From Nitrospiraceae bacterium UBA665 (lineage in GTDB: Bacteria; Nitrospirota; Thermodesulfovibrionia; Thermodesulfovibrionales; Dissulfurispiraceae), in NCBI GenBank assembly GCA_002299835.1, contig DBNT01000114.1, positions 1,123 to 65,122 of the forward strand: a DNA stretch of 64,000 nucleotides, read 5' to 3'. The position numbers and the translations under genes are program-made. The notes below the pieces were generated by a model. The model was not told the origin of the DNA and searched no databases. It saw only the letters and a list, made by a program, of their open reading frames with translations. Shown here piece by piece: positions 2,673 through 20,600 of the stretch (the first letter of the stretch is position 1; each line of letters opens with the position of its first letter).

Positions 2673-2839
2673 AAAGATGTTGCTCCCTCTACTATAAGGT
2701 CAGTCAAAAAAAACTGGCTGACCTTATTATTTCATTCTTTCTCATAGCTTATTGATTTTTTGCCTTAATTGTATTATACTTTTAGTGTTACGCTGTTAGT
2801 ATTATACACAAGGTGAGAATAAGAAGGAGGTTTAAACAG

Positions 2840-2868
2840 TTGACAATTAGTGTTCAAAAGTATATATT
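2840..2868 (+). promoter_or_regulatory. consensus sigma70 promoter upstream of the recombinase gene
   Basis: TTGACA, 17 nt, TATATT. Confidence 0.55.
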
Positions 2869-2887
2869 TTATCATAAGGTGTTATTG

Positions 2888-3487
2888 ATGCTAATAACTA
2901 TAAAATATATACGTGACTATTATAGTCTAAGCCGGATAAGCCTTATCAATTGGGAAAAGCAGGGATTGCTCAAACCATATTACACACCCGGAGGCCGCAG
3001 GCGTTATAAACGTGAAGACATAGAACACTTGTTGGGCATAAAGAAAGAATCGCCTGTCAAGCCTGCTGTAGTCTGTTACGCCCGTGTATCTACCGCCAAA
3101 CAAAAAGACTATCTCGATAATCAGATGCAGCGATTAAAAAGTTATTGCAAAGCTAAAGGCTATCGGGACTATCACATAATATCTGAGATAGCGTCTGGCG
3201 TCAACGAGAACAGGCGAGAGTTAAGGACGCTGTTGAATATGGCAAAGCGAGGAGAGGTAAGTAAGGTTGTTATTGAGTATGAAGACCGTCTGGCGAGGTT
3301 CGGTTATGAATATCTTAAGGCGTATTTCAATTCCTTTGGCATAGATATAGAGGTTATTAACGGAAATGAACACGAGGACGCTCAAAAAGAGCTTGCCGAA
3401 GACCTTATAGCAATGGTCACATCGTTTGCCGCAAGGATATACGGCAAGCGTGGAGGTCGCAAGATCAAACATGAACAAAAAAACTGA
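2888..3487 (+). CDS. tnpA: IS607-type serine recombinase (MerR-like HTH plus resolvase catalytic domain)
   Basis: N-terminal HTH (YSLSRISLINWEKQGLL). YARVSTAKQ catalytic-serine motif. The start is uncertain between GTG 2813 and ATG 2888. Confidence 0.8.
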   Translation: MLITIKYIRDYYSLSRISLINWEKQGLLKPYYTPGGRRRYKREDIEHLLGIKKESPVKPAVVCYARVSTAKQKDYLDNQMQRLKSYCKAKGYRDYHIISEIASGVNENRRELRTLLNMAKRGEVSKVVIEYEDRLARFGYEYLKAYFNSFGIDIEVINGNEHEDAQKELAEDLIAMVTSFAARIYGKRGGRKIKHEQKN

Positions 3488-5057
3488 CGGGACTATCATT
3501 GCAACTATCACAGGTATAATCAGTCCGCAAAGCGAAAGCGACATTGCCGATATATACGGACTAATGTCTGATTCTTCCTCTGCAAAGAAAATGGCTTTCA
3601 ACAGGATAGTTAAAGACGGCGTTGATGACAGGGGCGCAATAGAGAGATACATCAGACAGCGCATCCCGACTTTTAACACCCGCTATGCAAGAGACGCTAT
3701 AATCGAGGCTCAGGCAATAATCTTATCCCAGAAAGAGCTTCTGCCTATGTATCTTCAGAATACACAAAAGAAACTCAAAAAATCTGTTGCAAAACTTGTA
3801 GATTATGTAACAGAGGATAAAAAACCTAAAACTGACCTTTTAGTAGCTCTAAAGGGATTATGTAACAGAATCGGAAAACTGAAGTCTCGCATTACTGAAC
3901 TTCAATCGCATATTAACAACGGAACTATCCCAAACATTGTGTTTGGCGGAAAGAATAATTTTAAAAAACTACAAAAAGGTCTTATCTCAAGAAAACAGTG
4001 GAAAGATCTAAGAACCAACAGCTTTTACAGTAGAGGGGATGCATCCAAGCAAGGCAATCTTCATACACGTCTGTATTACAACGAAGCTGAAGACTCTTTC
4101 AGGATTAGGCTTTCTATCCCCCAGGATAAAGGCAGATGTAAATATATCTATTGCCCTGTCTCAATAGCCTCGGCTAAAAGGCATAAAAGCAGGCGGGAGA
4201 CACTTATATCGGCTGTGCAAAACAATGCCTCTTACTCAGTGCGAATTATAAGGCGTAATTCAAATATTGAAGCTCATATCACTCTTGATGAGGTTATTTA
4301 CGGCTCCTTCGTTAAGAAAATCCCCGAATCCGTAACCACTATCGCAGGGATAGACCTGAATACAGACAGGCTGGCAGTAACGCTGTCTGATTACAAAGGC
4401 AACTTCATTAGGCATAAAACATTTTATTGCCATGACCTTGAGCATTGCAGGACAGGGCAGAGAGACTTTACGATTAACCATGTCGTGAAGGAGATGTTTG
4501 AATGGCTTACAACTAATCATACAGAGGTTGTTGTTATTGAGCGACTTGATTTCAAGCAGGACATGGACACCAATGCATGGCTTAACCGTTTCAGGTCTAA
4601 CTTCACTTATAGTAAGCTGCATAAGGCTATCACGCGGAAGGCGCTCAGAACAGGTATGTTCATTAAGACCGTTAATCCGACATATACGTCTCAAATAGGA
4701 ACGCTCAAATACGCAGCGCAATACGGCATGGCAAGGCATGAGGCTGCCGCTTATGTAATAGCACGCAGAGGACTCGGATATAACGAGCGTATTCCTAAAA
4801 GGATTATCCAAAATCTGCCAGACATTATCAGTACTCTGATCCAGAAAGCTTCAGGCGCTAAGGAAGCAGCCAAAAAAAAGCTCACGGCTCATATTAAAGT
4901 CTTAAAACAGTGGAAAGCTTACTCTCCGGTAAGCACTATCCATAAGTGGAAGTTGTGGTCTTTGCTGTATCAAAGCCTACCATGCCCTGTGTTTCCTATG
5001 GAAGGAATAGCAGGGGTAAGTGGTCAGGCAGCTCCCCTAACAGGGGCCGGTCCATGA
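3471..5057 (+). CDS. tnpB: TnpB-like protein, atypical C-terminus
   Basis: GIDLN (RuvC-I), VVIERL (RuvC-II) and NPTYTSQ are present. No Cys zinc ribbon, and RHEAAAYVIARRG sits where DxNAAxNI is expected. The last roughly 35 codons are GC-rich and probably read through an RNA. Confidence 0.7.
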   Translation: MNKKTDGTIIATITGIISPQSESDIADIYGLMSDSSSAKKMAFNRIVKDGVDDRGAIERYIRQRIPTFNTRYARDAIIEAQAIILSQKELLPMYLQNTQKKLKKSVAKLVDYVTEDKKPKTDLLVALKGLCNRIGKLKSRITELQSHINNGTIPNIVFGGKNNFKKLQKGLISRKQWKDLRTNSFYSRGDASKQGNLHTRLYYNEAEDSFRIRLSIPQDKGRCKYIYCPVSIASAKRHKSRRETLISAVQNNASYSVRIIRRNSNIEAHITLDEVIYGSFVKKIPESVTTIAGIDLNTDRLAVTLSDYKGNFIRHKTFYCHDLEHCRTGQRDFTINHVVKEMFEWLTTNHTEVVVIERLDFKQDMDTNAWLNRFRSNFTYSKLHKAITRKALRTGMFIKTVNPTYTSQIGTLKYAAQYGMARHEAAAYVIARRGLGYNERIPKRIIQNLPDIISTLIQKASGAKEAAKKKLTAHIKVLKQWKAYSPVSTIHKWKLWSLLYQSLPCPVFPMEGIAGVSGQAAPLTGAGP

Positions 5058-5250
5058 ACTTCACAGCAGGTGAAGGCGAATCGGTATTCGGGACTGTGGC
5101 AGGGTGTGACTCCCTGCAGTAACGCCTTGAACTGGTAAAGGCGTAAAACCCAACGTCTTTGGCGAGGGTATCTTAATAAGGAGAGTACTCAAACTTTACC
5201 GGCTTAACTGAATGCAAATTCAGTTTTGTATAGTTTGGGGAACCAGGTAA
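4950..5250 (+). ncRNA. candidate TnpB guide (omega/re) RNA scaffold; extent approximate
   Basis: GC-rich stretch with hairpins GCAGGG/CCCTGC, ACGCCTT/AAGGCGT and AACTGAAT/ATTCAGTT. It overlaps and follows the tnpB 3' end. Confidence 0.4.
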
Positions 5251-7949: not shown

Positions 7950-8147
7950 ATGATTCAGGAAATAATAGAACAATCAAGGGAAGATGGGGAAAGACCCAAT
8001 GCGTGTTACCTTGACTCTGGTAAAAGCTGCAAACTGCTTGCAGCTAAAACACATGGCTTTGCAGGGGACATTCCCGAGGGGGAGCGTAATCACAGACCAT
8101 CAAAGGAAACCTGCATGGTTGCAAGGGGGCGTGGAATGTGTGTATGA
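7950..8147 (+). CDS. hypothetical protein
   Basis: GGAGGTG RBS before ATG 7950. The alternative frame 7984..8217 has no RBS. Confidence 0.4.
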   Translation: MIQEIIEQSREDGERPNACYLDSGKSCKLLAAKTHGFAGDIPEGERNHRPSKETCMVARGRGMCV

Positions 8148-8213
8148 AACTCTCATCAGCGAAAATGAGGGGCTTAAGTTTAAGTTTGTCAACAAAAGAA
8201 AAAGGAGAATTAC

Positions 8214-9869
8214 ATGAGTTTGATGATCAACGAAAAGAGGTTGTTTAGCCTCATAGGTAATTTTTTTGCACATCCTGAAAATGTGATATATGAGCTGGCG
8301 CAAAATGCAGCTCGGTCTAAAGCCACTCGCATGGATATCACATTTGAAGAAGGACGCCTGACGGTTAAAGATAACGGCAATGGAGCGAAGGATTACAAGG
8401 CGCTGCTGGTTGTGGCCGAATCCGATTGGTCTGATGATGTTGAAGAAGATCAAATGCCGGCAGGTTGGGGTAATTATTACCTCATTGCACTATCAAAGAT
8501 AGTCACCTACAGAAGTCTTTTTGGGTCTTTAACGATTGATTGTCCGAGGTTTCTTAAAGACCCCGACTATAGGAATAACATTTTCTCTGAAGTCAATAAA
8601 AAAGACATTTTATTGACAGGTTTTGAGGTTGAGGCTGAATTGCTGCCAGAGGTTGTAAACAAAGTACAGCCGCATCTCTGCAACCTTTCTTTTTTTCCAA
8701 TGGATATAAATATTAATGGTGTTCCTATACAAAAAGCCTCGATTGAGAATATTGTATTAGAACATGATATCCAGGCGAATTATCAAGGCAACCGAATAGG
8801 GATAGATGTGAGCAAACATTTATTAGGTTCTCCCAGAGACTTTCTCTCCTTTTTATCGGTTGTATGGTATGGCATTCCGGTGGGTGGATATCGCTCTAGA
8901 GGTGGTTATGGAGGAGTGTTTTTGTCCGTAAATACAGGCTCTCCTGTAACACCTGTACTTCCTTTTCGTCAGACAATTAAAGATGATGAAAAACTATCAG
9001 ACCTGTATAATTTTGTACACAAAGAGGTTGTCAATTATTGCACATCCTTGCTGAATAATTCTGAATGCCACGATAAGTATAAGTTGATGCTTGCATCAAC
9101 AATTCTGTCACAATATGCCTCGCAGTTTGAACTTGACAATCTCTCTCGTTTTTGCATTACCACTTCGGAGCCTTACTGCAACATAGAATCATCGGGCGAT
9201 TCATCAATGACGTTAGTGATTGTGGATAGACTATCACCTATCGTGCGTAATGAGAGTGTAAAGCTTTACATCAACGGTAAAGATGAGGACATACAAGGTG
9301 GTTTATTTTTACCGGAAGGAACTATTGTTGAGGCAGATATCCCTAAAATGAAACCTTCATGGCTTAATGTGGAAAACAAAGAACATACCGTGACGGTTAC
9401 CACAATGGGTATTTCATACTCAGGTTATTATGAGTGGCAGAATGCTGTTACCTCATGCAAAGGGAAAGATATCAAAGTCCTCGCTCTTGTCTCTTATGCC
9501 AGAAATGGAACTATGTATTACTCGAAGACTCCTACTGTGTATTACTCGGAGACTCCTGATGAGTTTTATGGTATTTCGGATTTTGTTTTCTCGCAGGTTG
9601 AATATAATGAAGACAAAGGCAATTTTGACACGCAAGAGTCTTACTTCAACGAGAAGATAGGCGAGGACATCCAAAATATTACTGGCTTGTATAGTGCAAG
9701 CGATTTGCTTATAGGTCTCTCTAACGTTCTCGGTATACGGGCGTCTGATGTTGTTTCTCTCGTATACAATAAGGATTCAAAAACTCTTACCGTGAAAACG
9801 GAAAAGCGAATAAGAGGCACAAATTCAGTCGAAGCGGAGGTCAAGGAGATGCTGTTCAAAGTCGCTTAG
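8214..9869 (+). CDS. GHKL-superfamily (Bergerat-fold) ATPase-like protein with a long uncharacterised C-terminal region
   Basis: N-box YELAQNAARS and G1 box VKDNGNGA near the N-terminus. AAAGGAG RBS. Terminator follows. Confidence 0.55.
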   Translation: MSLMINEKRLFSLIGNFFAHPENVIYELAQNAARSKATRMDITFEEGRLTVKDNGNGAKDYKALLVVAESDWSDDVEEDQMPAGWGNYYLIALSKIVTYRSLFGSLTIDCPRFLKDPDYRNNIFSEVNKKDILLTGFEVEAELLPEVVNKVQPHLCNLSFFPMDININGVPIQKASIENIVLEHDIQANYQGNRIGIDVSKHLLGSPRDFLSFLSVVWYGIPVGGYRSRGGYGGVFLSVNTGSPVTPVLPFRQTIKDDEKLSDLYNFVHKEVVNYCTSLLNNSECHDKYKLMLASTILSQYASQFELDNLSRFCITTSEPYCNIESSGDSSMTLVIVDRLSPIVRNESVKLYINGKDEDIQGGLFLPEGTIVEADIPKMKPSWLNVENKEHTVTVTTMGISYSGYYEWQNAVTSCKGKDIKVLALVSYARNGTMYYSKTPTVYYSETPDEFYGISDFVFSQVEYNEDKGNFDTQESYFNEKIGEDIQNITGLYSASDLLIGLSNVLGIRASDVVSLVYNKDSKTLTVKTEKRIRGTNSVEAEVKEMLFKVA

Positions 9870-9887
9870 CGTGCAATGGTATTAACT

Positions 9888-9932
9888 AAAAGCCGCCTGT
9901 TGAATTTTTCGGCAGGCGGCTTTTCTTTTTTT
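9888..9932 (+). terminator. rho-independent terminator
   Basis: AAAGCCGCCTG...CAGGCGGCTTT followed by a T-run. Confidence 0.7.
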
Positions 9933-9944
9933 GAGGAGGATTTT

Positions 9945-10100
9945 ATGCTTTACGGTCATAGCTATTTTGGTGTAGGCAAGCTGGTTGCTAATAATGGCGA
10001 AGTGATAATAATTGATTTCAAGCATTACGGCATCAAGGAAGTGCCTGTAGCAAATGTGCAGCCAACACAGGCTGGATATGGCGACCTGTGGTTTTATTAA
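9945..10100 (+). CDS. hypothetical 51-aa protein
   Basis: GAGGAGG RBS before ATG 9945. The track ORF start lies inside the terminator. Confidence 0.4.
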   Translation: MLYGHSYFGVGKLVANNGEVIIIDFKHYGIKEVPVANVQPTQAGYGDLWFY

Positions 10101-10143
10101 AGGTTTATGATTAACTCTCGCTTTGCGGGAGCAATTTTTACTT

Positions 10144-10175
10144 ATCCCATTAGATACAAAGTTATCTAATGGGAT
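10144..10175 (+). promoter_or_regulatory. perfect 13-bp inverted repeat: operator or RNA processing hairpin
   Basis: ATCCCATTAGATA-caaagt-TATCTAATGGGAT, no T-tract, directly upstream of the RBS of 10189. Confidence 0.4.
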
Positions 10176-10188
10176 CATGAGGTGATTT

Positions 10189-10641
10189 ATGTTACAGACA
10201 GCAATAACAAAGACAGCAGTAAAGGGATTTGTAGTAGAAAAAGTTACAGCGGAGGACATCAACTCAGGTGTAAATAAAATTATGTCAACGCTAAATGCGG
10301 ACACTCTCAGCAGGTTTGATAAGATATTCATCAAAAGAGCGCTGGGGGAAAAGGTGTTTGTGTCCCAACATGTTGAAGTGGACAAGTTCGCATTTATAGT
10401 CAGTAGCTTTCACATCGGCATGAATAACCAGAACGGAGATACTGTATCGCAACTCGGGAAAATTTTCCTTTACACGGAAAATAAATTCCTGAAAGTTTTG
10501 GCAGGATTGGCATTAAGAAGGCTTCATTATAATGTCAGCCTTCCTATGGACACCACTGAGATCAAAGAGGCTACCTACAAACTTGTAGGACTCGCTTTTA
10601 GGGTTGGCAACGACATAGAAAAAACCTACGCGTCTAATTGA
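10189..10641 (+). CDS. hypothetical protein
   Basis: GAGGTG RBS. 150 aa. Confidence 0.55.
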   Translation: MLQTAITKTAVKGFVVEKVTAEDINSGVNKIMSTLNADTLSRFDKIFIKRALGEKVFVSQHVEVDKFAFIVSSFHIGMNNQNGDTVSQLGKIFLYTENKFLKVLAGLALRRLHYNVSLPMDTTEIKEATYKLVGLAFRVGNDIEKTYASN

Positions 10642-10664
10642 ATTTCAGTTTGAAAACATAGAGC

Positions 10665-10689
10665 GCGGTTAAGCAGCTCCTTGAGCCAA
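10665..10689. repeat. 25-nt direct repeat, left copy
   Basis: GCGGTTAAGCAGCTCCTTGAGCCAA versus GCGGTCAAGTAGCTCCTTGAGCCAA at 11270..11294. Confidence 0.7.
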
Positions 10690-10802
10690 AAAGACCGCGC
10701 TTGGTTATTTATTTTGAATGAGGTGTCTTATGTTTTATACAAAGAGGATTCTTTGCAAAATTTATCACTGATGAGGATGTTCATAAAAAATCTCTACAGA
10801 GA

Positions 10803-10985
10803 ATGTCTAAGTCAGGGCTTTATGAGTTTGAATTTATTGCAGACTCTATCGGAGACACGATAGCCGTAAGTTTCTCTGTAGCTGAAGGGTCAGTATCAGC
10901 AGAAAGGGAATTATTATTCAAGGAGTTTTACGAATCATATTGGGATATGGTTGATATGGTTGATGAGGCAAAAAAGGGAGATTGA
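10803..10985 (+). CDS. hypothetical acidic protein
   Basis: 60-aa ORF with no clear RBS. Confidence 0.3.
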   Translation: MSKSGLYEFEFIADSIGDTIAVSFSVAEGSVSAERELLFKEFYESYWDMVDMVDEAKKGD

Positions 10986-10986
10986 T

Positions 10987-11226
10987 TTATAATGAGTTTA
11001 TTATCCGAACCCATTCTTTAGCCTTCTTTTCAGCCTTATCATATGGATATCCCTCTTTAAGAAACCCGGCGGTTACCTCAATCTCTTCTTCTTCCTGAGT
11101 CATATTCTCAGTAGTCACTACAAGAGATTTCGGATGCCCGGACTGCCTGAATAACTCTTTTAGAAAAGGCAATTCAAGGGTTTTTCTTTTTTCAGTTTCG
11201 CTCTTTATGTCTTTGTAAGCTGCCAT
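10987..11226 (-). CDS. small acidic hypothetical protein, leaderless; paralog of 1..215
   Basis: ATG lies 7 nt downstream of the P4 -10 box. C-terminal similarity to the 1..215 product. Confidence 0.6.
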   Translation of the reverse strand: MAAYKDIKSETEKRKTLELPFLKELFRQSGHPKSLVVTTENMTQEEEEIEVTAGFLKEGYPYDKAEKKAKEWVRIINSL

Positions 11227-11233
11227 ATATCTA

Positions 11234-11262
11234 TATATACAGCTTTAGCAGAGAAAAGTCAA
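11234..11262 (-). promoter_or_regulatory. sigma70-type promoter P4, leaderless
   Basis: CTTGACTTTTC with TTGACT, 17 nt, TATATA, 7 nt, ATG. Confidence 0.6.
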
Positions 11263-11269
11263 GCAATCC

Positions 11270-11294
11270 GCGGTCAAGTAGCTCCTTGAGCCAA
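11270..11294. repeat. 25-nt direct repeat, right copy
   Basis: 23 of 25 nt identical to 10665..10689. Confidence 0.7.
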
Positions 11295-11309
11295 GTGGTA
11301 GTAGTTCCG

Positions 11310-11480
11310 ATGTCTCCGGACGACAGCATTAAAATAGAATACCGCATAGTCTCGATTGTTAACGCAGGTTATGTAGTTGAAAAAAAGAAATGGGGCGGCT
11401 TGATAATAACCGACCCATCAGTAAAATATGCGTGGGAAACCGCTGACATGATGGTTGATATTAAGAGAATCCTCACCTAA
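11310..11480 (+). CDS. hypothetical protein; start uncertain
   Basis: ORF 11286..11480. First ATG at 11310. Weak RBS. Confidence 0.35.
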   Translation: MSPDDSIKIEYRIVSIVNAGYVVEKKKWGGLIITDPSVKYAWETADMMVDIKRILT

Positions 11481-11711
11481 TTATGCATTGTCCCAAAGGT
11501 CTTTAGCTATATCCTTTGCAAGAGACCTCGCATTATTTTCTGCTGCTCCTCCTACAATAAGGCAGTGATAAACGTCAAACTCAACTTCTTCAATGCTGCC
11601 GCAATGATCACAACTGCATATATCTGATTCGTCTGCTCCCAGTGCGGTTATTACTGCTTGCAATGGGGCGCTTTTATTAACCTTTAATGGTTTTTTCGCC
11701 AGTTCAGCCAT
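11481..11711 (-). CDS. hypothetical protein
   Basis: AAGGAG RBS. Served by promoter P5. Confidence 0.55.
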   Translation of the reverse strand: MAELAKKPLKVNKSAPLQAVITALGADESDICSCDHCGSIEEVEFDVYHCLIVGGAAENNARSLAKDIAKDLWDNA

Positions 11712-11749
11712 TTATTTATTCTCCTTTTTTGTTTTTTGCTTTATATGTA

Positions 11750-11778
11750 TTTATAAGCTGAAGCGGCGGAAAAGTCAA
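11750..11778 (-). promoter_or_regulatory. sigma70-type promoter P5
   Basis: CTTGACTTTTC with TTGACT, 17 nt, TATAAA, followed by a leader carrying an SD. Confidence 0.55.
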
Positions 11779-11821
11779 GGCAAATTATGCCAAATCATTT
11801 TAGAAGACAAGGAGGAAAAAA

Positions 11822-12034
11822 ATGAGAAACTATGTAGTATGGAGAGATAGAAATGGGTCTCTCCAATGGTGTTTGCCAACAAAGGGAATCGAAAATCATC
11901 TACAATGGAGCGATATTGTAGACAGACTAAAAGAACATATTGAAAAGATACCGCTGGATGCAAAAATTATTAATGCAGCAAATAAGGATGAAGCGATGAG
12001 AATATTCATCAAGCTTTCACCCCCATCCTTATAA
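11822..12034 (+). CDS. hypothetical protein
   Basis: AAGGAGG RBS. The stop codon abuts the right end of the TnpB element. Confidence 0.55.
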   Translation: MRNYVVWRDRNGSLQWCLPTKGIENHLQWSDIVDRLKEHIEKIPLDAKIINAANKDEAMRIFIKLSPPSL

Positions 12035-12330
12035 TTGACATCCTCCCCACGCCTAAAGACGGGGGATTCCCGAAGACAACCGAACAGGACTGCGCCTGTT
12101 CAGACTGAGCTCTCCGATGATCCCTTTCAGACTGTCTGTACAGACCAGTCCTTGAGCGTCAAAGTTCTCACCCAGATGTCGGTCTTCGTCTATGCGAGAG
12201 CAGCTCAGGGGACTCCTATCGAGACCCACGGCAAACCCTGAAGTCTGTCCGTTCGCTACTTTGGCATAATGCCAGCAGCTCGCAAAAAGCAGTTGTCTAT
12301 CTGCTTTGTGGTCTAACGGCAGCAAAAGAC
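12035..12330 (-). ncRNA. candidate omega/reRNA scaffold of the solo TnpB; extent approximate
   Basis: GC-rich, low-complexity translation. Hairpins include GAACAGG-cgcagt-CCTGTTC. Located at the 3' end of tnpB. Confidence 0.45.
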
Positions 12331-13861
12331 TGCCTCCCACTCCGCTGGCACAGGGGCTGTAGAACAATCCCAGATAGGCTGACAAAACATCTCTCTGGCT
12401 TTTAACCCCGCACTCACACTCATGCACCCGCTGGGAGAGCTTCTTCTTTTGCCTTTTCCCGCAGAGGCAGAGTTGAGACAAGGCGGTTTTCAGTGGTATC
12501 AAAGTCGTATCGTCCCCGGCGCTTTCAGCCTTGGCGAAGATAGTGTTTTTAACCAACGATGGCGCATTGTATCCCACTGACCTGCCATAATTCTTTTGCC
12601 ATGATCTGATTGAAACATCCTCAGTCTTAAACGAACAGCCCAGTGCGGTAAGTATATTGGCAAACTCATTCAGGGCTGTTTTTCTTGTCGCTGCTATCAG
12701 GCGATGCATTTCTCTGATGGCAGTCCTTGTTTGTTTATAACCTTCCGAAAAGACCCATTCCCCCCTGCGTTTTTTAGCAGTCCCGTCTGTGTTGTAATTG
12801 TTGGGGTTGTTGGCACGCCTTTGCCTATCAAGTTTTCTTTGCAGTTTTCTTAGATCAGACTGGTATTCTATAATCTTGTTAAAAACAGGTTGGAGGGCTG
12901 CAATAACAGTGTCTTCATTGCGAAGGACTACTGCCATATTTCTCGGCCCCATATCGAATGCAACATGGAACTGTTTGTACAGTCCGATATAGCGTATCTG
13001 CTCAATAACCTTGCTGGTTTTAGGAAATTCGATAATGTTAGAGACATAATGCTTGAGCCTCAGTCTATTAGTAGGCTTACCTTTTGAGACTGCATTGTGT
13101 ATCAGTTCGGAGTTGTGCTGCAGTATCCTGAGATTCTCCTCTTCAACCCGTTCATCAGTCATACCCATGGGTCTTATGTCTATAACAAACTGCACATAGA
13201 AGACATCATTGCCCTTGATAATTCGCCTGATTACCCGGATATAGGAAACATCAACAGCTTCATGGTTTTTAAAGTTATCGATTATCTGCTGTAGATACCA
13301 GTTGTGATAGCCATCATCTTTGCGGTAGTCTAATATCAGAGGGATAGTTATTTTCTTTTTGCCAATGCCATAAGTAACAGCTTTGGCGTCATGGTTAAAC
13401 ATAAAACCGGTATCAGTGGATTTGGAATGAACAGATGACAGGATATTATCCCACTTGCCCTTAAACCTGACCTTTTTCGCCTTGCCGTAGAGAACCTTTT
13501 TTATAGCTTCAAATGCCCTGTCAGCCAGTACTTGTGCAAACTGGGAGTTGAATTTGTCACTGAGATACCCAATATGGTCTTTGACGAACTTCTCGATGTC
13601 GGTTTTGGTGAGGAAATATCTGCCAGCAATTATCTCTTCAAGAAGCTTATCGACCACTGCGGTATTACATTTTGCTTTCTTCAGGTCTCTGCGGAAAGGC
13701 AATAGCGACTGGTATTCTTTATCCGCCCTGATGCGATTCAAGCGTTTTCTGCATTCAGACAGAGCAAGGTTATAGACGTTCTTTCCCTTATCCAGAAGTT
13801 TCAATAAAAACTTCTGATCGGAACGGCTTGCTTTAAGTTTAAACTCTATTGTTTTCTTCAT
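12053..13861 (-). CDS. tnpB: TnpB RNA-guided endonuclease family protein. The true stop is uncertain because the distal ~90 codons are probably RNA read-through
   Basis: FDMGPRN (RuvC-I). FKTEDVS (RuvC-II). Zinc ribbon CLCG...HECECG followed by QRDVLSAYL (RuvC-III). ATG at 13861. Confidence 0.8.
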   Translation of the reverse strand: MKKTIEFKLKASRSDQKFLLKLLDKGKNVYNLALSECRKRLNRIRADKEYQSLLPFRRDLKKAKCNTAVVDKLLEEIIAGRYFLTKTDIEKFVKDHIGYLSDKFNSQFAQVLADRAFEAIKKVLYGKAKKVRFKGKWDNILSSVHSKSTDTGFMFNHDAKAVTYGIGKKKITIPLILDYRKDDGYHNWYLQQIIDNFKNHEAVDVSYIRVIRRIIKGNDVFYVQFVIDIRPMGMTDERVEEENLRILQHNSELIHNAVSKGKPTNRLRLKHYVSNIIEFPKTSKVIEQIRYIGLYKQFHVAFDMGPRNMAVVLRNEDTVIAALQPVFNKIIEYQSDLRKLQRKLDRQRRANNPNNYNTDGTAKKRRGEWVFSEGYKQTRTAIREMHRLIAATRKTALNEFANILTALGCSFKTEDVSIRSWQKNYGRSVGYNAPSLVKNTIFAKAESAGDDTTLIPLKTALSQLCLCGKRQKKKLSQRVHECECGVKSQRDVLSAYLGLFYSPCASGVGGSLLLPLDHKADRQLLFASCWHYAKVANGQTSGFAVGLDRSPLSCSRIDEDRHLGENFDAQGLVCTDSLKGIIGELSLNRRSPVRLSSGIPRL

Positions 13862-13878
13862 GCTCACCACTTATACTC

Positions 13879-13907
13879 CTTATACGGTGAAAATCAGAAA
13901 AAGTCAA
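13879..13907 (-). promoter_or_regulatory. sigma70-type promoter P6, upstream of tnpB
   Basis: CTTGACTTTTTC with TTGACT, 17 nt, TATAAG. Confidence 0.5.
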
Positions 13908-13990
13908 GGGGTTGCACGCCTTATATCCCCATGGATAAATCCAGGGGCTTTACGGCGCTTTCGTGGTAAATATCTCAACAGGAGGTTTTC

Positions 13991-14242
13991 GTGAAACTTG
14001 TTGTATTGCCAGATGCAGAATACAAAAAAATCAGAGAATTAATTTCGGAAAGAGGCGTTGTCCTGATGCCCGAGTCATTGGCTGATAAGCATGATAGAGA
14101 CAATCTCCATAATGCGGTAAATGATTATGATTTCGGTGGAGAGGCAGATGTGTGGGCGGATTTTGTTGACAGCGATGACCATTTCTTTTTGTCAGAACTT
14201 AAAGACGGCAGCAAAGAGAAAGGTGGTGGACAATGCGATTAA
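13991..14242 (+). CDS. hypothetical acidic protein
   Basis: AGGAGG RBS. GTG start. Confidence 0.5.
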   Translation: MKLVVLPDAEYKKIRELISERGVVLMPESLADKHDRDNLHNAVNDYDFGGEADVWADFVDSDDHFFLSELKDGSKEKGGGQCD

Positions 14243-14358
14243 TGGAATTATACGAGCAATTGCGAGTTCTCTATCCATCGCTTTCTAACCGTGAATTAAA
14301 AGAACTCGCAATCAAACAGTTTGAGCGGTTTAGGAACGGCGAGATGATAGTTAATTAA
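14233..14358 (+). CDS. hypothetical 41-aa protein
   Basis: GGTGGTGG RBS-like run. Overlaps the upstream stop. Confidence 0.3.
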   Translation: MRLMELYEQLRVLYPSLSNRELKELAIKQFERFRNGEMIVN

Positions 14359-14599
14359 CTATGTGACATCTCGCCTGCACTAAATGCCCACAGAGAGGAC
14401 ATATAGGCTCTGCAATTTTATATGTCCTCTCGCCCAGCGTTAGTTCGCTGAATATAACCCTGACTTTATCGCTCATGATGTTAATAACTTCAAGACAGAG
14501 AGGACATATAAGTTTTTCCTGAATAACCGCTGCTGTTTTGTCCTTGAGGTCTTGCGCAAAAATTAGCTTTTCAAGCTGATGTTCTACTGTTGTTATCAT
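14351..14599 (-). CDS. small double CxxC zinc-binding protein
   Basis: CPLCLE and CPLCGH. AAGGAG RBS. Served by promoter P7. Confidence 0.55.
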   Translation of the reverse strand: MITTVEHQLEKLIFAQDLKDKTAAVIQEKLICPLCLEVINIMSDKVRVIFSELTLGERTYKIAEPICPLCGHLVQARCHIVN

Positions 14600-14617
14600 A
14601 GAATCTCCTTTTGTTTA

Positions 14618-14646
14618 TATATACGGCTTTTGAAGGTAAAAGTCAA
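14618..14646 (-). promoter_or_regulatory. sigma70-type promoter P7
   Basis: TTGACT, 17 nt, TATATA. The -35 box overlaps the stop codon of 14643..15404. Confidence 0.55.
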
Positions 14647-15404
14647 GAAATCGGAAATTGCCGAATCAGTTCCTTGTCGTAGGCATCTTTGATATTGTTT
14701 TTCATGAAAACAGGCACATCCATCTGTTTAGCTTGATTTGCTATAGGCTCTATCTGTTTGATGTGAGGCACGACAGGGTTTTTCCCTGTCTGAGCGCCAA
14801 TAATAATCCAGTCAACTCCTTCAATAGTGCTGCTGCTTACATAGCCAAGCAAGGGCTCTATGCTTAAAAATAATACTTTAGCCTTTGCTTTTTTGAGATG
14901 TTGAACCTGCCCTTTATCTATATCGGAATTAATAGATGCGCCTACCCAAACATTATCTGGATAGTAGAAATCAGATAGCCGAGATGGATTCTTAGTTAAC
15001 AGCAGGAATGTATGCCATGCGCACTGCTCTGCCACTTCCAGTATCTGTTCAATCCACATGTCCGGCACCCACTCACCGAACATATCACCTGTGTCCACGG
15101 TGAATATTTTTGCAGGCTTTTTAACTTTCATCGGCTCATGCAGCCTATGTGGATAAAAAGTGGGATCATATCCGTAAGGATATATCTCGCCTTTCTCTGC
15201 AATGTGAATGCCACCGGTTTGTCTTTTCCGCCAGTCTTTTTCCCAGACGATATCTCTGGATGGCAGTTTATGTTTTGCGCCGAATCGGTTCAGGGGAGCA
15301 GTTGATTTTGTTGTGTTGTAGCAGTAGGTGTGCCTGCATTTGTGAAGACAGCCAGTTATAGGATTCCATGTGTAATCGCACCATTCAATAGTAGTTTTGT
15401 TCAT
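14643..15404 (-). CDS. DUF5131 / phage Gp37-Gp68 family three-Cys-motif protein, leaderless
   Basis: N-terminus MNKTTIEWCDYTWNPITGCLHKCRHTYC matches the IEW.D.TWNP.TGC signature. About 250 aa. Confidence 0.75.
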   Translation of the reverse strand: MNKTTIEWCDYTWNPITGCLHKCRHTYCYNTTKSTAPLNRFGAKHKLPSRDIVWEKDWRKRQTGGIHIAEKGEIYPYGYDPTFYPHRLHEPMKVKKPAKIFTVDTGDMFGEWVPDMWIEQILEVAEQCAWHTFLLLTKNPSRLSDFYYPDNVWVGASINSDIDKGQVQHLKKAKAKVLFLSIEPLLGYVSSSTIEGVDWIIIGAQTGKNPVVPHIKQIEPIANQAKQMDVPVFMKNNIKDAYDKELIRQFPIS

Positions 15405-15410
15405 GTCTAT

Positions 15411-15438
15411 ATTATACGGCTTTGCCGTAAAAAATCAA
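15411..15438 (-). promoter_or_regulatory. sigma70-type promoter P8, leaderless
   Basis: TTGATT, 16 nt, TATAAT, 6 nt, ATG. Confidence 0.55.
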
Positions 15439-15452
15439 CAATGGAGGTGTTT

Positions 15453-16784
15453 ATGAATAAACATGACAGAGAGCAAATGTATAAGCATCTGGAACACTTA
15501 TACATGAAGACGGGGTCTGTCAAGGAAGTGATTAAGGAGACAAACCTATCAATCAGCACTGTATATAGTCATCTAAGGCATCTAACTAAAAAGATGAAAG
15601 AAGAGAAATTGCATAATGCAGCACAGTTATTATCATTAGGGAAATCTATTTCAGTGGCATCCAAGTCCGCAGGCGTTAGCCGGCAAACTGCCAGAAAGCA
15701 CTTAGTGACATTGAACAAGTCTTATAATGCAGATGCTGCTATTGAAAATATTGATAACAATATGTCAGTAAGTAGGCAGGCGAAAACATCAACAAAGACA
15801 AACCCTAATAGCTTTCTTGCTACTCCTGCTATTGACGCTGTTATAAATCTGTCCTACAGACTGGAGAAGTTCAAGGTGCGGAAGTGGATTATTGATACCG
15901 CAGATGCCATGTTGAGCGATATATCGGCAATCACTTTTCCCGGCAGCGAGTGGCTCATGGAAAGAGATCTCTTCTTAAAATGCGGGAAAAGGGTTAAGAA
16001 AATTACTGCGATTGAAAAAGACCGCGAGCTTTATGAGTTCTCCATGCACAATGTCCCGCCTGTTGATAATGTCGAGTTTCCACACAAGACAGACAGCGAA
16101 TTGTTTTCATCTGCAGCAGCGCAGCCATATAATCTGTTGTGGCTGGATTATATGGGTCCTTTTATGCCCAGCAAGCTTGAATCATTTAGGCTTGCTCTTG
16201 AAAACGGCTATGTGGCTGACAGGGCTATTGTCTGCCTGACTTTTTTAAACGGTAGAGACGGCAGCATGTCAAAGACATACAAAGACCATGCAGAATCTGT
16301 CAACGATATCCCTATTGGAAAGGGCAAATACAGCAACGCAAGGCTGAAAGTTATCCCCCAGATGTATGCAGATACTGCCAAGCCTTACGGATTTACAACT
16401 TCCGTAATTTCTGCTCACACGTATAAGGAAAGACAGGGTGGTGTGGCAAAATCTCCTATGCTGTTTATATCTCTACTTATGGAGAAGCAGGCGATAAAAA
16501 GGTCGGTGACTGCCAAAAATGCTAAAACTGCTAAAAAAAGGCTTCTGGAAAAAAAGGCTTTAATAAAAAGTTTAGGCAATGCAGCGATTGAGGTAATAAA
16601 AACCTTGCCCGCATCTTTAGAACAGATTGATAATTCAGTCGCAAGCAAAATTAAAGTCCGGCGGGTGATACGAACACTATTGAAGAATGAAACGGTAGAG
16701 TTCCTCAGGGAGAAGGGATCAAAGGATGTTATTTTCCGTTTAACGGAAAGAGGTAAAAAACTATTAACACAATTGGAGGCTTAA
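15453..16784 (+). CDS. multi-HTH protein with a central Rossmann/methyltransferase-like domain; possible TcmP-type partner of DUF5131
   Basis: GGAGGTG RBS. HTH-like segments (LSISTVYSHLRHL, AGVSRQTARKHL). FPGSEW, ITAIEKD and LLWLDYMGPF resemble SAM-MTase motifs I, II and IV. Confidence 0.5.
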   Translation: MNKHDREQMYKHLEHLYMKTGSVKEVIKETNLSISTVYSHLRHLTKKMKEEKLHNAAQLLSLGKSISVASKSAGVSRQTARKHLVTLNKSYNADAAIENIDNNMSVSRQAKTSTKTNPNSFLATPAIDAVINLSYRLEKFKVRKWIIDTADAMLSDISAITFPGSEWLMERDLFLKCGKRVKKITAIEKDRELYEFSMHNVPPVDNVEFPHKTDSELFSSAAAQPYNLLWLDYMGPFMPSKLESFRLALENGYVADRAIVCLTFLNGRDGSMSKTYKDHAESVNDIPIGKGKYSNARLKVIPQMYADTAKPYGFTTSVISAHTYKERQGGVAKSPMLFISLLMEKQAIKRSVTAKNAKTAKKRLLEKKALIKSLGNAAIEVIKTLPASLEQIDNSVASKIKVRRVIRTLLKNETVEFLREKGSKDVIFRLTERGKKLLTQLEA

Positions 16785-17099
16785 ATGGTAATAATTATCG
16801 ATGCAAGCAATTACGGAAAGATTGTACGCGATATGGTAAAACTGCTTATTCAGCATGGCGCTGAAGCAAACGATGCAAAATCATATCACATTGGCGATGA
16901 AAAAAGCGAAGCCAAATCTCGCAATCAGGGGACTTCCGAACACAGTAATATTTCTGTGCAGAGCAATACCGCAAAGCAACAGGCGATACAACTACTCAAG
17001 GCTGGACGCTCTGTAGACGAGGTGGTCAAAACTACAGGGCTGAAAAAGCCTACAATCAGGGCGTATAAGGCGCATTTAACCATGGGGACTTATACATAG
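16785..17099 (+). CDS. hypothetical protein with a C-terminal HTH-like segment
   Basis: GGAGG RBS. VDEVVKTTGLKKPTIRAYKAHL. Confidence 0.5.
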   Translation: MVIIIDASNYGKIVRDMVKLLIQHGAEANDAKSYHIGDEKSEAKSRNQGTSEHSNISVQSNTAKQQAIQLLKAGRSVDEVVKTTGLKKPTIRAYKAHLTMGTYT

Positions 17100-17107
17100 G
17101 AGGGGTT

Positions 17108-17278
17108 GTGATAGAAAAATTAGAGCTAATAGCCTCAATAGCCACTAATATTAGAGAGGCAGCAGAAAAAGAATCTGTTTCTTGTTATACGATAAGCCAG
17201 ATAGATAGATTAATGTCTGTTATCGACAAGACGATTGCAGACATTAAGTTAGAGGCTGAACAGTGGGCTGGCAAATAA
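17108..17278 (+). CDS. hypothetical 56-aa protein, GTG start
   Basis: AGGAGGGG RBS. Confidence 0.35.
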   Translation: MIEKLELIASIATNIREAAEKESVSCYTISQIDRLMSVIDKTIADIKLEAEQWAGK

Positions 17279-17283
17279 TTACT

Positions 17284-17319
17284 TATCCAATGGCGCATCT
17301 TTAGATGTGCCATTGGATA
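17284..17319 (+). promoter_or_regulatory. 17-bp hairpin with a 2-nt loop: RNA processing or attenuation site
   Basis: TATCCAATGGCGCATCT-tt-AGATGTGCCATTGGATA, with one G-T pair and no T-tract. Confidence 0.4.
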
Positions 17320-17344
17320 GTCTAAACAATTTAAAGGAGGCGTT

Positions 17345-17602
17345 ATGGACGACCATGTGGAATTTCTTACGACTTTACCTCAGAAAAATAACGGTAAACG
17401 CGATAGAGGTTATTACCGCAACCAAAGACAGAGAATTATTAAAAAACGAATGTATATTGCCAAAAGAAAGCGACTTGATGTCTTCTACCCGGGTGAACTG
17501 GCTAAAGGCTCAATTATCTGCAATGTTTTGCTTGTCTTACCATTGCCATTAGAGGCAAGAAGTCGCCAGAAACAACCTAATAGAGAGGTTATATATGTAT
17601 AA
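17345..17602 (+). CDS. hypothetical basic protein
   Basis: AAGGAGG RBS. Confidence 0.5.
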   Translation: MDDHVEFLTTLPQKNNGKRDRGYYRNQRQRIIKKRMYIAKRKRLDVFYPGELAKGSIICNVLLVLPLPLEARSRQKQPNREVIYV

Positions 17603-20600
17603 AATCAAAAAGAAAAAACCGCAATTCGCAAGTGAAAACCAGCTTGCGATTTTCTTTGGCGGAGGGGTAGAATCAGCTATCGCTTCGGTTTCTATCCCGT
17701 TAGATAATTTTATATCTAATGGGACCATAGACCTGCCGGAGACTGTAGAGCTGCCGACAATCCCGTCCAGAGAAATATTATCAACCGTAGATCTGGTAGT
17801 ATGTAATGATGCGTTTAACAAGCGAAACTACCAGTTCACACCGAAAGACCTGTCGCCGGCGTCTAAACTTAAAGACAGATTTGCGGATAATGTAGCAGCA
17901 ATAAGGCTGCTTAAGGATTTAGAGAAAAGTCCGCGGGAGCTGTCTTTAAAAGACAAGGAAACGCTTAACCATTACACTGGATGGGGAGCTTTGCCGCAGG
18001 CGTTTGATTATTATGGCGATGAGTGGAAATCAGAATACTTTTTGCTGAAAAGTCTTTTCACCGAACAGGAGTATGACAGCGCTAAAGCCAGCACGCCAAA
18101 TGCGCATTACACAGACCCTGAGATTATACAATTTATGTATGATGCCTTGAGGAGAATGGGGTTTGATGGCGGAAGGATTTTAGAGCCATCCTCAGGAGTA
18201 GGATACTTCTTAGGGCTTATGCCCGAAGAGATGTCTGCTAAAAGCCGCATAACCGCAGTTGAATTGGATTCTATCAGCGGCAGCATTGCCAAGATGCTCT
18301 ATCCCGACGCGGATGTGCGGATACAAGGCTTTGAGGAAGCGAGGATGCTGGACGGATTCTTCGACCTTGCCATCAGCAATGTGCCGTTCGGCAATTATAA
18401 GGTCTATGATGCCAATGACACTGATCTTAACAAGCACAAATTTAGTATTCATAATTATTTCTTTGCCAAGGCTATGAAAAAGGTCAGACCGGGCGGTATT
18501 GTGACGTTCATTACATCCAGCTATACAATGGATGCAATAGACACAGAATTTAGAGAGTATATGGCGTCCAAAGCAGACCTGATTGCCTCATTTAGACTGC
18601 CGGAGTGCGCATTTCTGAAAGTGGCGAACACAAAAGTCGTCACAGATATTATCTTTCTAAAAAAGAAAGAGCAGGAAGATGTGTCTGCCGATCCGCCGGT
18701 TTGGGTTCATACCGCGCCGGTTTTTGTTCATACCTCGCCGGTTAAAAGGAAGAGTAGTCCACATCTAAACAAGTATTATCATAAAAACCCAGACGCTGTT
18801 TTTGGCAAGATATCTGTTGAAGTCAGCAGGTACGGAGATAATGAACTGACAGTTAAAAAATCAGGCGACGTAGACATACTGCTGAAAAATGCCCTGTCCA
18901 GCATGCCTCATGATGTCTATAAGCCTGCTGTTGTTAAAACAGAGCGCAGAAATCCCTCTGTCATAGAAGCGCCTGAAGGCATGAAAGACGGACTACATAT
19001 TGTTAAGGACGGCGAGATTTACAGGAGCGAGAACAGTACCCTTACACATATCCCGTTTTCCAACGATAACAAAGCCCGCATGTCTGCGGTTGTCGGAATC
19101 CGTGATGCGGCAAGGCAGCTGCTTGCCCGTCAATTAGAACGAGGAGACGCACAATTGGCGGAAGGCATGGCGACACTGAATGCATTGTATGATGCGTTTG
19201 TAGCCAAATACGGCTATCTGAATGCCAGTCAAAATAGAGCGATATATAAAACAGATGCAGATTATCCGCTCATATTGTCTTTGGAAAATTGGGACGAGGA
19301 TTCCCAAACCGCCAGCAAGTCGGATATATTTTTCAACAGGGTTATTTATACGCATAAAAAAGCGGAACGAGCGGAAAACGTTCAGGAAGCCATGCTTATA
19401 ACCTTATCTGAAACAGGCGGCATGCTTGACTTTCAGAGAATGTCTGATTTGATGGGTTTGCCGGAATCAGCTATTATTGCTTCACTGTCTCAAGCAGGAC
19501 TTATATTCAAGCTGCCGGACTCAGGACAATGGGTTACTTCCGATGAATATTTAAGCGGGTTCGTTAAAGACAAACTTAAAGATGCGGAAATAGCCGCAGA
19601 ATCAGACCCGGCTTTTGCAGCAAATGTTACAGCTTTGTCCGCAGTGATACCACATGATATACCTGCTGAAGAAATTTCGGTGAGGCTTGGGTCCTCATGG
19701 ATTCCCACATATGTGATAAAGGAATTTATAGAATATGTTATCGGCGAAAGCGGAGTGGTTGTAGAGTTCTCGCCTATCAGCGCTACATGGTTTGTCAGTA
19801 CTTATAGATACAGCAGGTACTCCATAGAATCATCTGTAAAAAATACAACTGAGTTCGGAACAGAAATGTTAAGCGCTCTTGAAATCATAGAAAAGACGCT
19901 TAACCATCAAAACATTGTTGTCAAAGACTGCATCGGCGAGGACAAAAACGGCAAGAAAATCTATGTCGTCAACGTCGCAAAGACTGAGGCTGCACGGGAA
20001 AAACAATATTTGATTATCTCAAAATTTGAAGAATGGATTTGGAAGGACCCTGTACGCTGCCTAAATCTCGTTCGCATTTATAACGATACGATGAATACCA
20101 TCAGGAACCGGCAGTATGACGGCAGCAATATCATACTGCATAATGTTAACCCGCAGATTGAACTCCGTCCTCATCAGAAAGATGCTGTGTGGCGGATACT
20201 TCAGTCCCAAACAACGCTGCTTGCGCATGTAGTTGGATCCGGGAAGACTTATATTTGCGCTGCAGCGGCTATGGAGTGCAAACGGCTCGGCATCGCTCAC
20301 AAACCGATGTTAGTCGTGCCTAATCATTTATTAGAGCAATGGGCTGCCGAGATCCTAAGACTCTATCCTGCTGCCAACGTCTTAATAGCGGGCAAAGAAG
20401 ACTTCACTCCACAAAACAGGAAGCTGCTGTTTTCCAAGATCGCCATGTCTAACTGGGATGCTGTGATCGTTGGGCATAGCAGCTTTGAAAAAGTCGCTGT
20501 GTCCAACGACACGCTGAACGCCCTCATTAATAAAGAAATTGCCGACTTGGAATATCGAATCAGAGAAGAAAATGACCGCGGCGGAAGACAGACCCGTGTC

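Follow-up and report, generated by a model that had tools for sequence, protein, structure and literature searches.

The minus strand of the window, a 64,000-nt stretch of contig DBNT01000114.1 from Nitrospiraceae bacterium UBA665 (GenBank assembly GCA_002299835.1), carries at 12035-13965 a 1,931-bp insertion sequence (IS) of the IS200/IS605 family with IS608-like ends. The element is very probably a tnpA-deleted, non-autonomous derivative that encodes a divergent but intact TnpB, and in which one transcript is both the tnpB mRNA and the guide RNA (omegaRNA, or reRNA). It was filed as non-autonomous because the Y1 transposase TnpA is missing from this copy. In the mechanism that we propose, a single transcript from a promoter of the host replicon's type would be translated into TnpB, and the last ~338 nt of this transcript together with ~16-20 nt of flanking sequence (12034-12015) would form the omegaRNA with its guide. 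Translation would run through 320 nt of the scaffold and stop in the terminal hairpin, which is at the same time the right-end hairpin of the element, and TnpB would excise the omegaRNA from its own mRNA, by analogy with ISDra2 and related systems. The ribonucleoprotein would then cut TTAC-flanked copies of the uninterrupted junction between the two genes, A and B, that flank the element, and recombinational repair from an occupied copy would restore the IS, leading to its retention or spread among copies of the replicon. Because TnpA is absent, TnpB would act on copies of the replicon without the IS and not on excision products, and the classical role of TnpB in retention after excision would have nothing to counteract.

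The tnpB open reading frame (ORF) spans 12053-13870 on the minus strand and encodes 605 aa from GTG 13870 to the stop codon TAG at 12055-12053. An alternative start at ATG 13861, where the homologs begin, would give 602 aa; residues are numbered here on the 605-aa product, and numbers counted from the ATG are 3 lower. The TnpB core, with its WED, REC, RuvC and TNB domains, is encoded at 12371-13861 (minus strand) and contains the catalytic residues D306 (codon 12955-12953), E417 (12622-12620) and D494 (12391-12389) as well as a CxC...HxCxC zinc ribbon, with the zinc-ribbon/TNB insertion located between RuvC-II and RuvC-III. In an alignment of 65 homologs D306, E417, D494, C468, C470, C485 and C487 were all invariant, and H483 was conserved in at least 90% of the sequences. 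Matches to the family models were significant but sub-threshold: guided_TnpB NF040570 of NCBIfam covered residues ~9-499 with E = 2.4e-17 and 63.3 bits compared to a cut-off of 100, and in Pfam OrfB_IS605 gave E ~1e-3 and 20.3 bits compared to 30.5, while Cas12f1-like_TNB gave E = 0.0018, under its gathering score. The protein was therefore placed in a divergent clade, and a profile built from this clade matched the solved ISDra2 TnpB at 1e-10. An AlphaFold2 model, with a predicted local distance difference test score (pLDDT) of 88.5 and a predicted template modelling score (pTM) of 0.79, was used in Foldseek and matched ISFba1 TnpB (8iaz; E = 5e-12, TM-target 0.73) and ISDra2 TnpB (TM-target 0.67 for 8h1j and 0.70 for 8exa), and also Fanzor2 and Cas12f. 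Differences between copies in the core were 0.30, 0.21 and 0.59 at the three codon positions, and the Nei-Gojobori ratio of nonsynonymous to synonymous divergence (dN/dS) for residues 450-497 was 0.11, compared to 1.1-2.3 off-frame. By its conserved residues and predicted fold, the protein is a divergent TnpB with intact catalytic residues. The intact and invariant triad ruled out a TldR, a nuclease-dead derivative of TnpB, and a type V CRISPR-Cas12 system was also ruled out, as a repeat array was not found in window 8000-18000.

A structured region starts at 12372, directly after the RuvC-III motif QRDVLSAYLG, and forms the predicted omegaRNA scaffold (12035-12372, minus strand), which is ~338 nt long with 12 covarying helices and 320 nt within the ORF. 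The RNA was compared over the last 360 nt of the element in 17 sequences. RNAalifold predicted 65 pairs, and compensatory double changes were present in 31 of these. In an independent count of 69 pairs in 12 helices, 93.8% of the cells were paired, compared to 81.6% after shuffling (0 of 500 shuffles reached the observed value) and 36-51% when the partners were slid. Compensatory changes were observed in 34 of the 69 pairs (24.7 after shuffling, 9-14 with slid partners), and the covariation score was 0.48 (0.25 and 0.07-0.12, respectively). The window sequence itself had a minimum free energy of -141 kcal/mol (z = -2.6). The terminal hairpin, helix 12 (12044-12066, minus strand), coincides with the right-end subterminal hairpin and showed the compensatory changes CGTC/GGCG, TGGC/GCCA, CGAC/GTCG and GGGT/ACCC across copies. 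The tnpB stop codon lies at the junction of the loop and the 3' arm of this hairpin, and the element ends 18 nt further on. The 3' end has the anatomy of an omegaRNA, and we regard it as a predicted scaffold. An earlier note, made from the letters of this DNA, had proposed that the end of the ORF is the omegaRNA scaffold, and the covariation of the 12 helices bears this out; the overlap between ORF and RNA that it described is real, but it extends over about 320 nt (12053-12372) and not 270 nt.

Since homology between the copies ends abruptly at 12035, the guide was placed in the adjoining flank, as the earlier note had also done. The predicted guide (12015-12034, minus strand), 5'-UUAUAAGGAUGGGGGUGAAA-3', would be 16-20 nt long, and its position follows from the end of homology. 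This stretch spans the last codons of gene A (11822..12034) together with its stop codon, and the guide sequence occurs once in the 2.02-Mb assembly, with no second genomic target there. The predicted cleavage target would be TTAC(C)+TTATAAGGATGGGGGT, or NNNNN+TTATAAGGATGGGGGTGAAA in the form used for a library of target-adjacent motifs (TAMs). A pseudoknot between GGAUGUC in the 3' linker and an internal GACAUCC, seen by eye, was present in some lineages and not conserved in others, and was dropped.

A variable extra hairpin (GAACAGG...CCTGTTC) was found at window 12067-12104 (minus strand), between helices 9 and 12. Depending on the lineage it was present, longer or absent, always in frame, and it matches the disordered, length-variable end of the protein tail described below.

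The boundaries of the element were defined by comparison with its homologous copies. The TTAC target and presumptive TAM (13966-13969, minus strand) is located directly 5' of the left end, and in 11 of 12 copies TTAC stands between an unrelated flank and the conserved left end, with TCAC in the remaining copy. The target motif may be TTACC instead, because the base after TTAC, a C, is also invariant. The left end (13909-13965, minus strand) is conserved among all homologous copies, and the sequence 5' of TTAC is unrelated. It contains a subterminal imperfect hairpin, CCCCTGGAT-TT-ATCCA(T)GGGG at 13947-13927, followed by the conserved ATATAAGGCGTG, and its consensus across copies is C..AAGCGCCGTAAAG-CCCC[hairpin](T)GGGG-ATAtAAGGCGTG. 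At the other end, nucleotide similarity between copies extends beyond the tnpB stop codon up to the right-end terminus (12035-12043, minus strand), which reads ...AGGATGTCAA with TCAA as the last letters. In the 3'-end nucleotide alignment the near-invariant GGGAGGATGTCAA marks the point past which all copies diverge, and homology stops after 12035. Both ends have subterminal imperfect hairpins, the one on the right at 12066-12044, which are preserved among the copies through compensatory changes, and both lack terminal inverted repeats. No target duplication was present, and the right flank differed in every copy compared. The left-end hairpin follows TTAC at a distance of ~18-19 nt and TCAA follows the right-end hairpin at a distance of 10 nt, which is reportedly the same geometry as that of the IS608 ends in the work of Ton-Hoang, Barabas and Hickman.

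The element's right end at 12035 abuts the TAA (12032-12034) of flanking gene A (11822..12034, plus strand), which encodes 70 aa without a family match. On the other side, flanking gene B (13991..14242, plus strand) encodes 83 aa, also without a family match, and its ribosome-binding site adjoins TTAC. When the flanks were rejoined in silico, the TAA of gene A was followed by 25 nt including an AGGAGG ribosome-binding site and then by the start of gene B (13991). Judged from this reconstruction, the IS is inserted antisense into a plus-strand gene pair, which it split in the 25-nt spacer 3' of TTAC. Gene A, which had been taken for a convergent neighbour, is instead the upstream member of this pair. 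The GC content is 54% in the tail/RNA part, 43% in the core and 39-41% in the flanks.

In the Logan run SRR28842985, two unitigs, L177 (window 9926-13964) and L173 (from window 13935), overlap by 30 nt. The break is one base from the inferred left-end boundary, and the right-end junction is unbroken. This suggests a branch in the graph at the left-end junction, which could reflect an alternative junction, a circle, or TTACC with a left end from 13964.

Approximately 25 homologous loci with 50-62% protein identity were found in peat and fen metagenomes and in metagenome-assembled genomes of Thermodesulfovibrionales and Nitrospiraceae. In the window copy the tnpB start codon follows the left end after only 108 nt, and tnpA is missing. 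In contrast, four sister copies (L005, L043, L085 and L136) have an ORF of 134-142 aa between the left end and tnpB, which encodes a Y1 TnpA (Y1_Tnp E = 6e-44) and whose stop overlaps the tnpB start. Truncated tnpA remnants were found in L006 and L008, and tnpA was absent in several lineages, the window copy included. Solo tnpB copies with differing 5' regions arose repeatedly within the family. The description of this gene as a solo TnpB with an intact triad was thus correct. Further left ends, right ends and omegaRNA cores were searched for in the 2.02-Mb assembly, where only the window copy was found and the others were mismatched chance matches.

Two sister copies are rearranged. In L075 an insertion of ~1.6 kb (L075:513-2131) separates the TnpB core from the 5' end of the omegaRNA, precisely where the two meet. 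In L043 an internal deletion (L043:3461-3498) fuses residue ~154 to ~489 and leaves tnpA, the left end and the complete omegaRNA in place.

The tnpB gene has a sigma-70-type promoter (13879-13908, minus strand), CTTGACTTTT-N14-TATAAG, in which TTGACT at 13907-13902 is separated by 17 nt from TATAAG at 13884-13879. GTG 13870 is 8 nt past the -10 box, and the tnpB mRNA may for this reason be leaderless or have a very short leader. A template for this promoter, CTTGACTTT[TC]-N14-TATAWN, gave seven minus-strand sites in the first 15 kb of the window (251, 1826, 7075, 11263, 11779, 13908 and 14647), the tnpB promoter and six others, and several sites had a start codon 6-8 nt beyond the -10 box. The exact 10-mer occurred 6 times, compared to ~0.1 times expected by chance. 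The 2.02-Mb assembly had 12 template sites, with 8 on contig C92, 3 on C98 and 1 on C30. C92 and C98 are one replicon, and with 11 of the 12 sites on these two contigs the promoter belongs to the replicon's own family, in agreement with the class assigned to it in the earlier note. The tnpB promoter has its spacer ...ATTTTCACCG in common with two of the sites, C98:20974 and C98:76826. The template sites may mark a co-regulated gene set, or the spacer may contain a site for a regulator. The tnpB promoter is located inside the IS, right after the conserved left-end sequence, at a position that is taken up in the sister copies by tnpA and a native promoter of unrelated sequence. As the sister copies differ there, the 5' region of the window copy was replaced by, or evolved into, a promoter of the host-replicon type.

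These observations could also be explained if TnpB had been domesticated by the replicon. The element would then have ceased to be a selfish IS, and the replicon would express TnpB from its own promoter for its own benefit, for example to cut competing replicons without the insertion or to drive neighbouring genes to fixation. A promoter of a replicon-specific family, including the shared spacer, stands in place of the native IS promoter and tnpA; tnpA is wholly lost and no cognate TnpA was found in the assembly; and every assembly of the replicon has the IS, with 0-1 mismatch over 8 kb. However, the IS ends, hairpins and TTAC are as intact as in the mobile sister copies, and the guide is merely the right-end flank without another match in the genome. 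The repeated origin of solo tnpB copies also makes the loss of tnpA an ordinary form of decay, and a sigma-70 consensus promoter could have come about by chance or by selection for expression. We consider domestication doubtful, and the non-autonomous IS derivative outlined above better describes the locus.

Several negative results weigh against this description. The TnpB protein is under the curated cut-offs of all TnpB models, and a permissive Rfam scan of window 10-16 kb gave no credible family for the RNA. The cognate TnpA was not found in the assembly, where the sole Y1-family gene encodes an unrelated protein of ~310 aa. Finally, an empty site was not found when 40 related genomes were searched with the rejoined flanks, viral contigs with the exact pattern, and public assemblies with the exact flanking proteins; all long contigs recovered by the flanking proteins contain the IS. 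Insertion polymorphism, on which the proposed homing would rest, was thus not seen in the sequences searched.

The element could also be an inactive relic, a recently stranded IS copy that is too young for its TnpB and RNA to have decayed. The single copy and the missing cognate TnpA fit this explanation, as do the many sister copies that show visible decay and the GC content of 45% compared to 40% in the host, which points to a foreign origin and possibly to a recent arrival. The purifying selection is a clade-wide measurement and says nothing on the window copy itself. On the other hand, the ORF, the ends and all helices of this copy are intact, and its strong consensus promoter suggests that it is expressed. 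A relic is unlikely, and intact TnpB with its omegaRNA on a single transcript is the reading that we retain.

The family models end at residue ~499, and the ORF continues for ~105 codons beyond this point. This C-terminal tail (12056-12370, minus strand; residues 501-605) is wholly encoded by the omegaRNA scaffold. The earlier note had treated it as mere read-through. Twenty of 23 copies, which represent at least six sub-lineages, keep the tail frame open over ~100-110 codons, with indels in frame. One stop was found in the TnpB frame of the tail, compared to 1-10 in each of the other two frames. In a frame-agnostic nucleotide alignment, tail differences by codon position were 0.35, 0.29 and 0.44. 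The Nei-Gojobori dN/dS of the tail was 0.44 for the full set of pairs and 0.46 when only close pairs, whose alignment is trivial, were taken, compared to 0.87-1.31 in the off-frames of the same columns. The AlphaFold2 model of the tail has strands at 504-506, 513-515 and 546-551 and helices at 522-539 and 581-592, with pLDDT values of 77-91 for residues 501-555 and 581-592, and residues 556-572 and 594-605 are disordered. Within the tail, dN/dS followed the predicted order: it was lowest in the ordered segments, at 0.29-0.44, with 0.35 for the last helix, and rose to 0.54 in the disordered linker. The wider clade also has tails of 60-135 aa as a rule, at ~32% identity (Nostoc, Calothrix and others), where many end in ...RTPRL*, compared to ...GIPRL* in the window. 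At the DNA level the stop codon of these distant members is situated within the terminal right-end hairpin, as in the window, or just ahead of it. By these substitution patterns the tail is dual-coding, with an omegaRNA and a peptide that is under purifying selection in the TnpB frame only, and the view of the tail as read-through has to be given up. Conservation of the tail as protein in homologs had been set against the RNA; the tail is indeed conserved, but this does not refute the RNA, and both constraints coexist.

If the tail were RNA only, the ORF extension would be untranslated or a functionless read-through that is open by chance or because of base composition. There is precedent in ISDra2, where the overlap encodes C-terminal residues that are disordered and dispensable, and no Pfam family matches the tail. 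The proportion of synonymous differences (pS) is 0.52 in the tail compared to 0.72 in the core, and this depressed synonymous divergence is the signature of the RNA constraint and shows this constraint to be the dominant one. The position of the stop codon also differs by ~10 codons among lineages. All of this would fit an RNA without a peptide, but the restriction of dN/dS below 1 to the TnpB frame, in close pairs too, would not, nor would an open frame with in-frame indels next to frames with 1-10 stops, the persistence of tails ending in ...PRL* at ~32% identity, or the segments at 501-555 and 581-592 modelled with pLDDT 77-91. We consider an RNA-only tail quite unlikely. It is very improbable that the tail is protein only, with the guide RNA elsewhere or nonexistent and the RNA structure explained by GC-rich codons and the right-end DNA hairpin of TnpA: the terminal hairpin does double as the hairpin of the transposase and Rfam gave no match, but TnpA needs the subterminal hairpin only, whereas 11 more helices covary across 300 nt, the frame-broken copies L026, L071 and L075 retain alignable, paired RNA sequence, and in lineages with an ORF that stops ~10 codons earlier GAATCCC is still conserved past the stop.

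A more far-reaching version of the dual-coding model, which we put forward only tentatively, is that the tail is a folded and selected protein module encoded nucleotide-for-nucleotide by covarying omegaRNA helices, and that, to judge by the replicon-type promoter, the plasmid-like host may employ the nuclease as a device for homing or competition. The protein helix 522-539, for example, is encoded by RNA helix 5 and the 3' arm of RNA helix 3. If this were true, functional protein and functional RNA would genuinely overlap, unlike the mutual avoidance concluded for ISDra2. The tail might then bind its own omegaRNA, or else omegaRNA biogenesis might require ribosomes to come within 18 nt of the guide, for example to sustain transcription or to delay folding and self-processing.

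An ORF that reads through its omegaRNA is already known for TnpB. In ISDra2 the omegaRNA overlaps tnpB residues 335-408, and the overlapped C-terminal domain is disordered and dispensable; the regions essential to the protein were concluded to keep clear of those essential to the RNA (Nakagawa et al. 2023, PMC10097598). The ISDra2 reRNA has also been described as lying within the 3' coding region, with a 224-bp overlap and 7 bp plus the spacer after the stop codon, in a single-transcript architecture that was called evolutionarily conserved and common to ISAam1 (2026 preprint, 10.64898/2026.09.09.750255). TnpB has been shown to excise its omegaRNA from the mRNA that encodes it (Nety et al. 2023, PMC10278001). 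The novelty that the earlier note implied for an omegaRNA embedded almost wholly in the tnpB ORF is thus lost to the published architecture of ISDra2 and ISAam1; this is the native layout of ISDra2, it holds across the clade, and the element studied here is an ordinary but cleanly delimited one. Like ISDra2 TnpB, it combines the fold of an RNA-guided RuvC nuclease with a guide scaffold embedded in the 3' coding region, has few bases from the stop codon to the guide, takes its guide from the right-end flank and has a TAM that would correspond to the transposon target motif. In contrast to ISDra2, the protein has 605 aa and not 408 aa, the overlap begins after RuvC-III and does not cover it, covariation extends over the whole scaffold of ~338 nt, TTAC and not TTGAT is the target, and tnpA is absent. 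The clade departs from the description of ISDra2 mainly in the overlapped peptide: an extra tail of ~105 aa that is long, under selection and predicted to be partly folded, compared to the disordered and dispensable C-terminal domain of ISDra2.

Other known systems are similar in part. The TTAC target, the TCAA right end, the imperfect subterminal hairpins and the lack of inverted repeats are shared with IS608 of Helicobacter pylori, but tnpA is absent from the window copy though sister copies have it, and its TnpB is far larger and no more than a distant relative. Derivatives with tnpB only, of the IS1341 type, are common, also in phage and plasmid genomes, and homologs with 26-28% identity are annotated as transposases in Clostridium phage c-st, Geobacillus virus E3 and phiCD211. 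The window copy differs from these derivatives in having a promoter of the host replicon's family. TldR proteins are likewise derived from TnpB, are carried on mobile elements and depend on a guide RNA 3' of the gene, but the TnpB described here has an intact triad, and its guide comes from the native right-end flank and lacks a second genomic target.

With the target motif, ends, scaffold, guide and promoter all delimited, this divergent TnpB of ~600 aa would be directly testable as a nuclease with a TTAC TAM. The clade would also provide a natural case for the co-evolution of a protein-coding sequence and a structured RNA on the same nucleotides, and it calls for caution in engineering, as recoding or truncation of the 3' end would alter the guide scaffold along with the protein. 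The promoter of the replicon's type hints at a mobile element that has fitted an IS-borne nuclease into its own programme of expression. The interest that remains lies in the dual constraint on the tail and in the host-type promoter; otherwise the element adds little that is new.

The host replicon encodes a coupling protein of the VirD4/TraG type (G000:C98:27154-29202), and a 173,752-bp contig from another assembly (DAHVJY010000054.1) has both the tnpB locus and the VirD4/TraG coupling protein. One contig of the replicon measures 182 kb, and the size of the replicon is ~175-182 kb. The window also encodes RNR, SbcCD, helicases, a DnaG-type primase, a DUF5131 protein, a Gp3-like protein and a methylase-helicase fusion. 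The Phage_capsid, TerL_ATPase and Phage_portal models had no match anywhere in the assembly, the phage collection gave no DNA match and IMG/VR no close relatives. With no capsid, terminase or portal and with VirD4/TraG on the replicon, phage identity was rejected as unproven. The host is best described as a conjugative-plasmid-like element of ~175-182 kb.

Other features of the window were seen away from the IS. A second TnpB-family gene of 543 aa at window 3426-5057 (plus strand), within ~2760-5250, matched guided_TnpB with E = 4.9e-16 and TIGR01766 with 47.5 bits, compared to a cut-off of 32. A group II intron reverse transcriptase/maturase (RVT_1 E = 6e-50, RVT_N, GIIM) is encoded at window 47532-49157 (plus strand), and an in-frame 24-nt tandem duplication is located at window 9510-9557 (plus strand), inside the 551-aa ORF 8214..9869.

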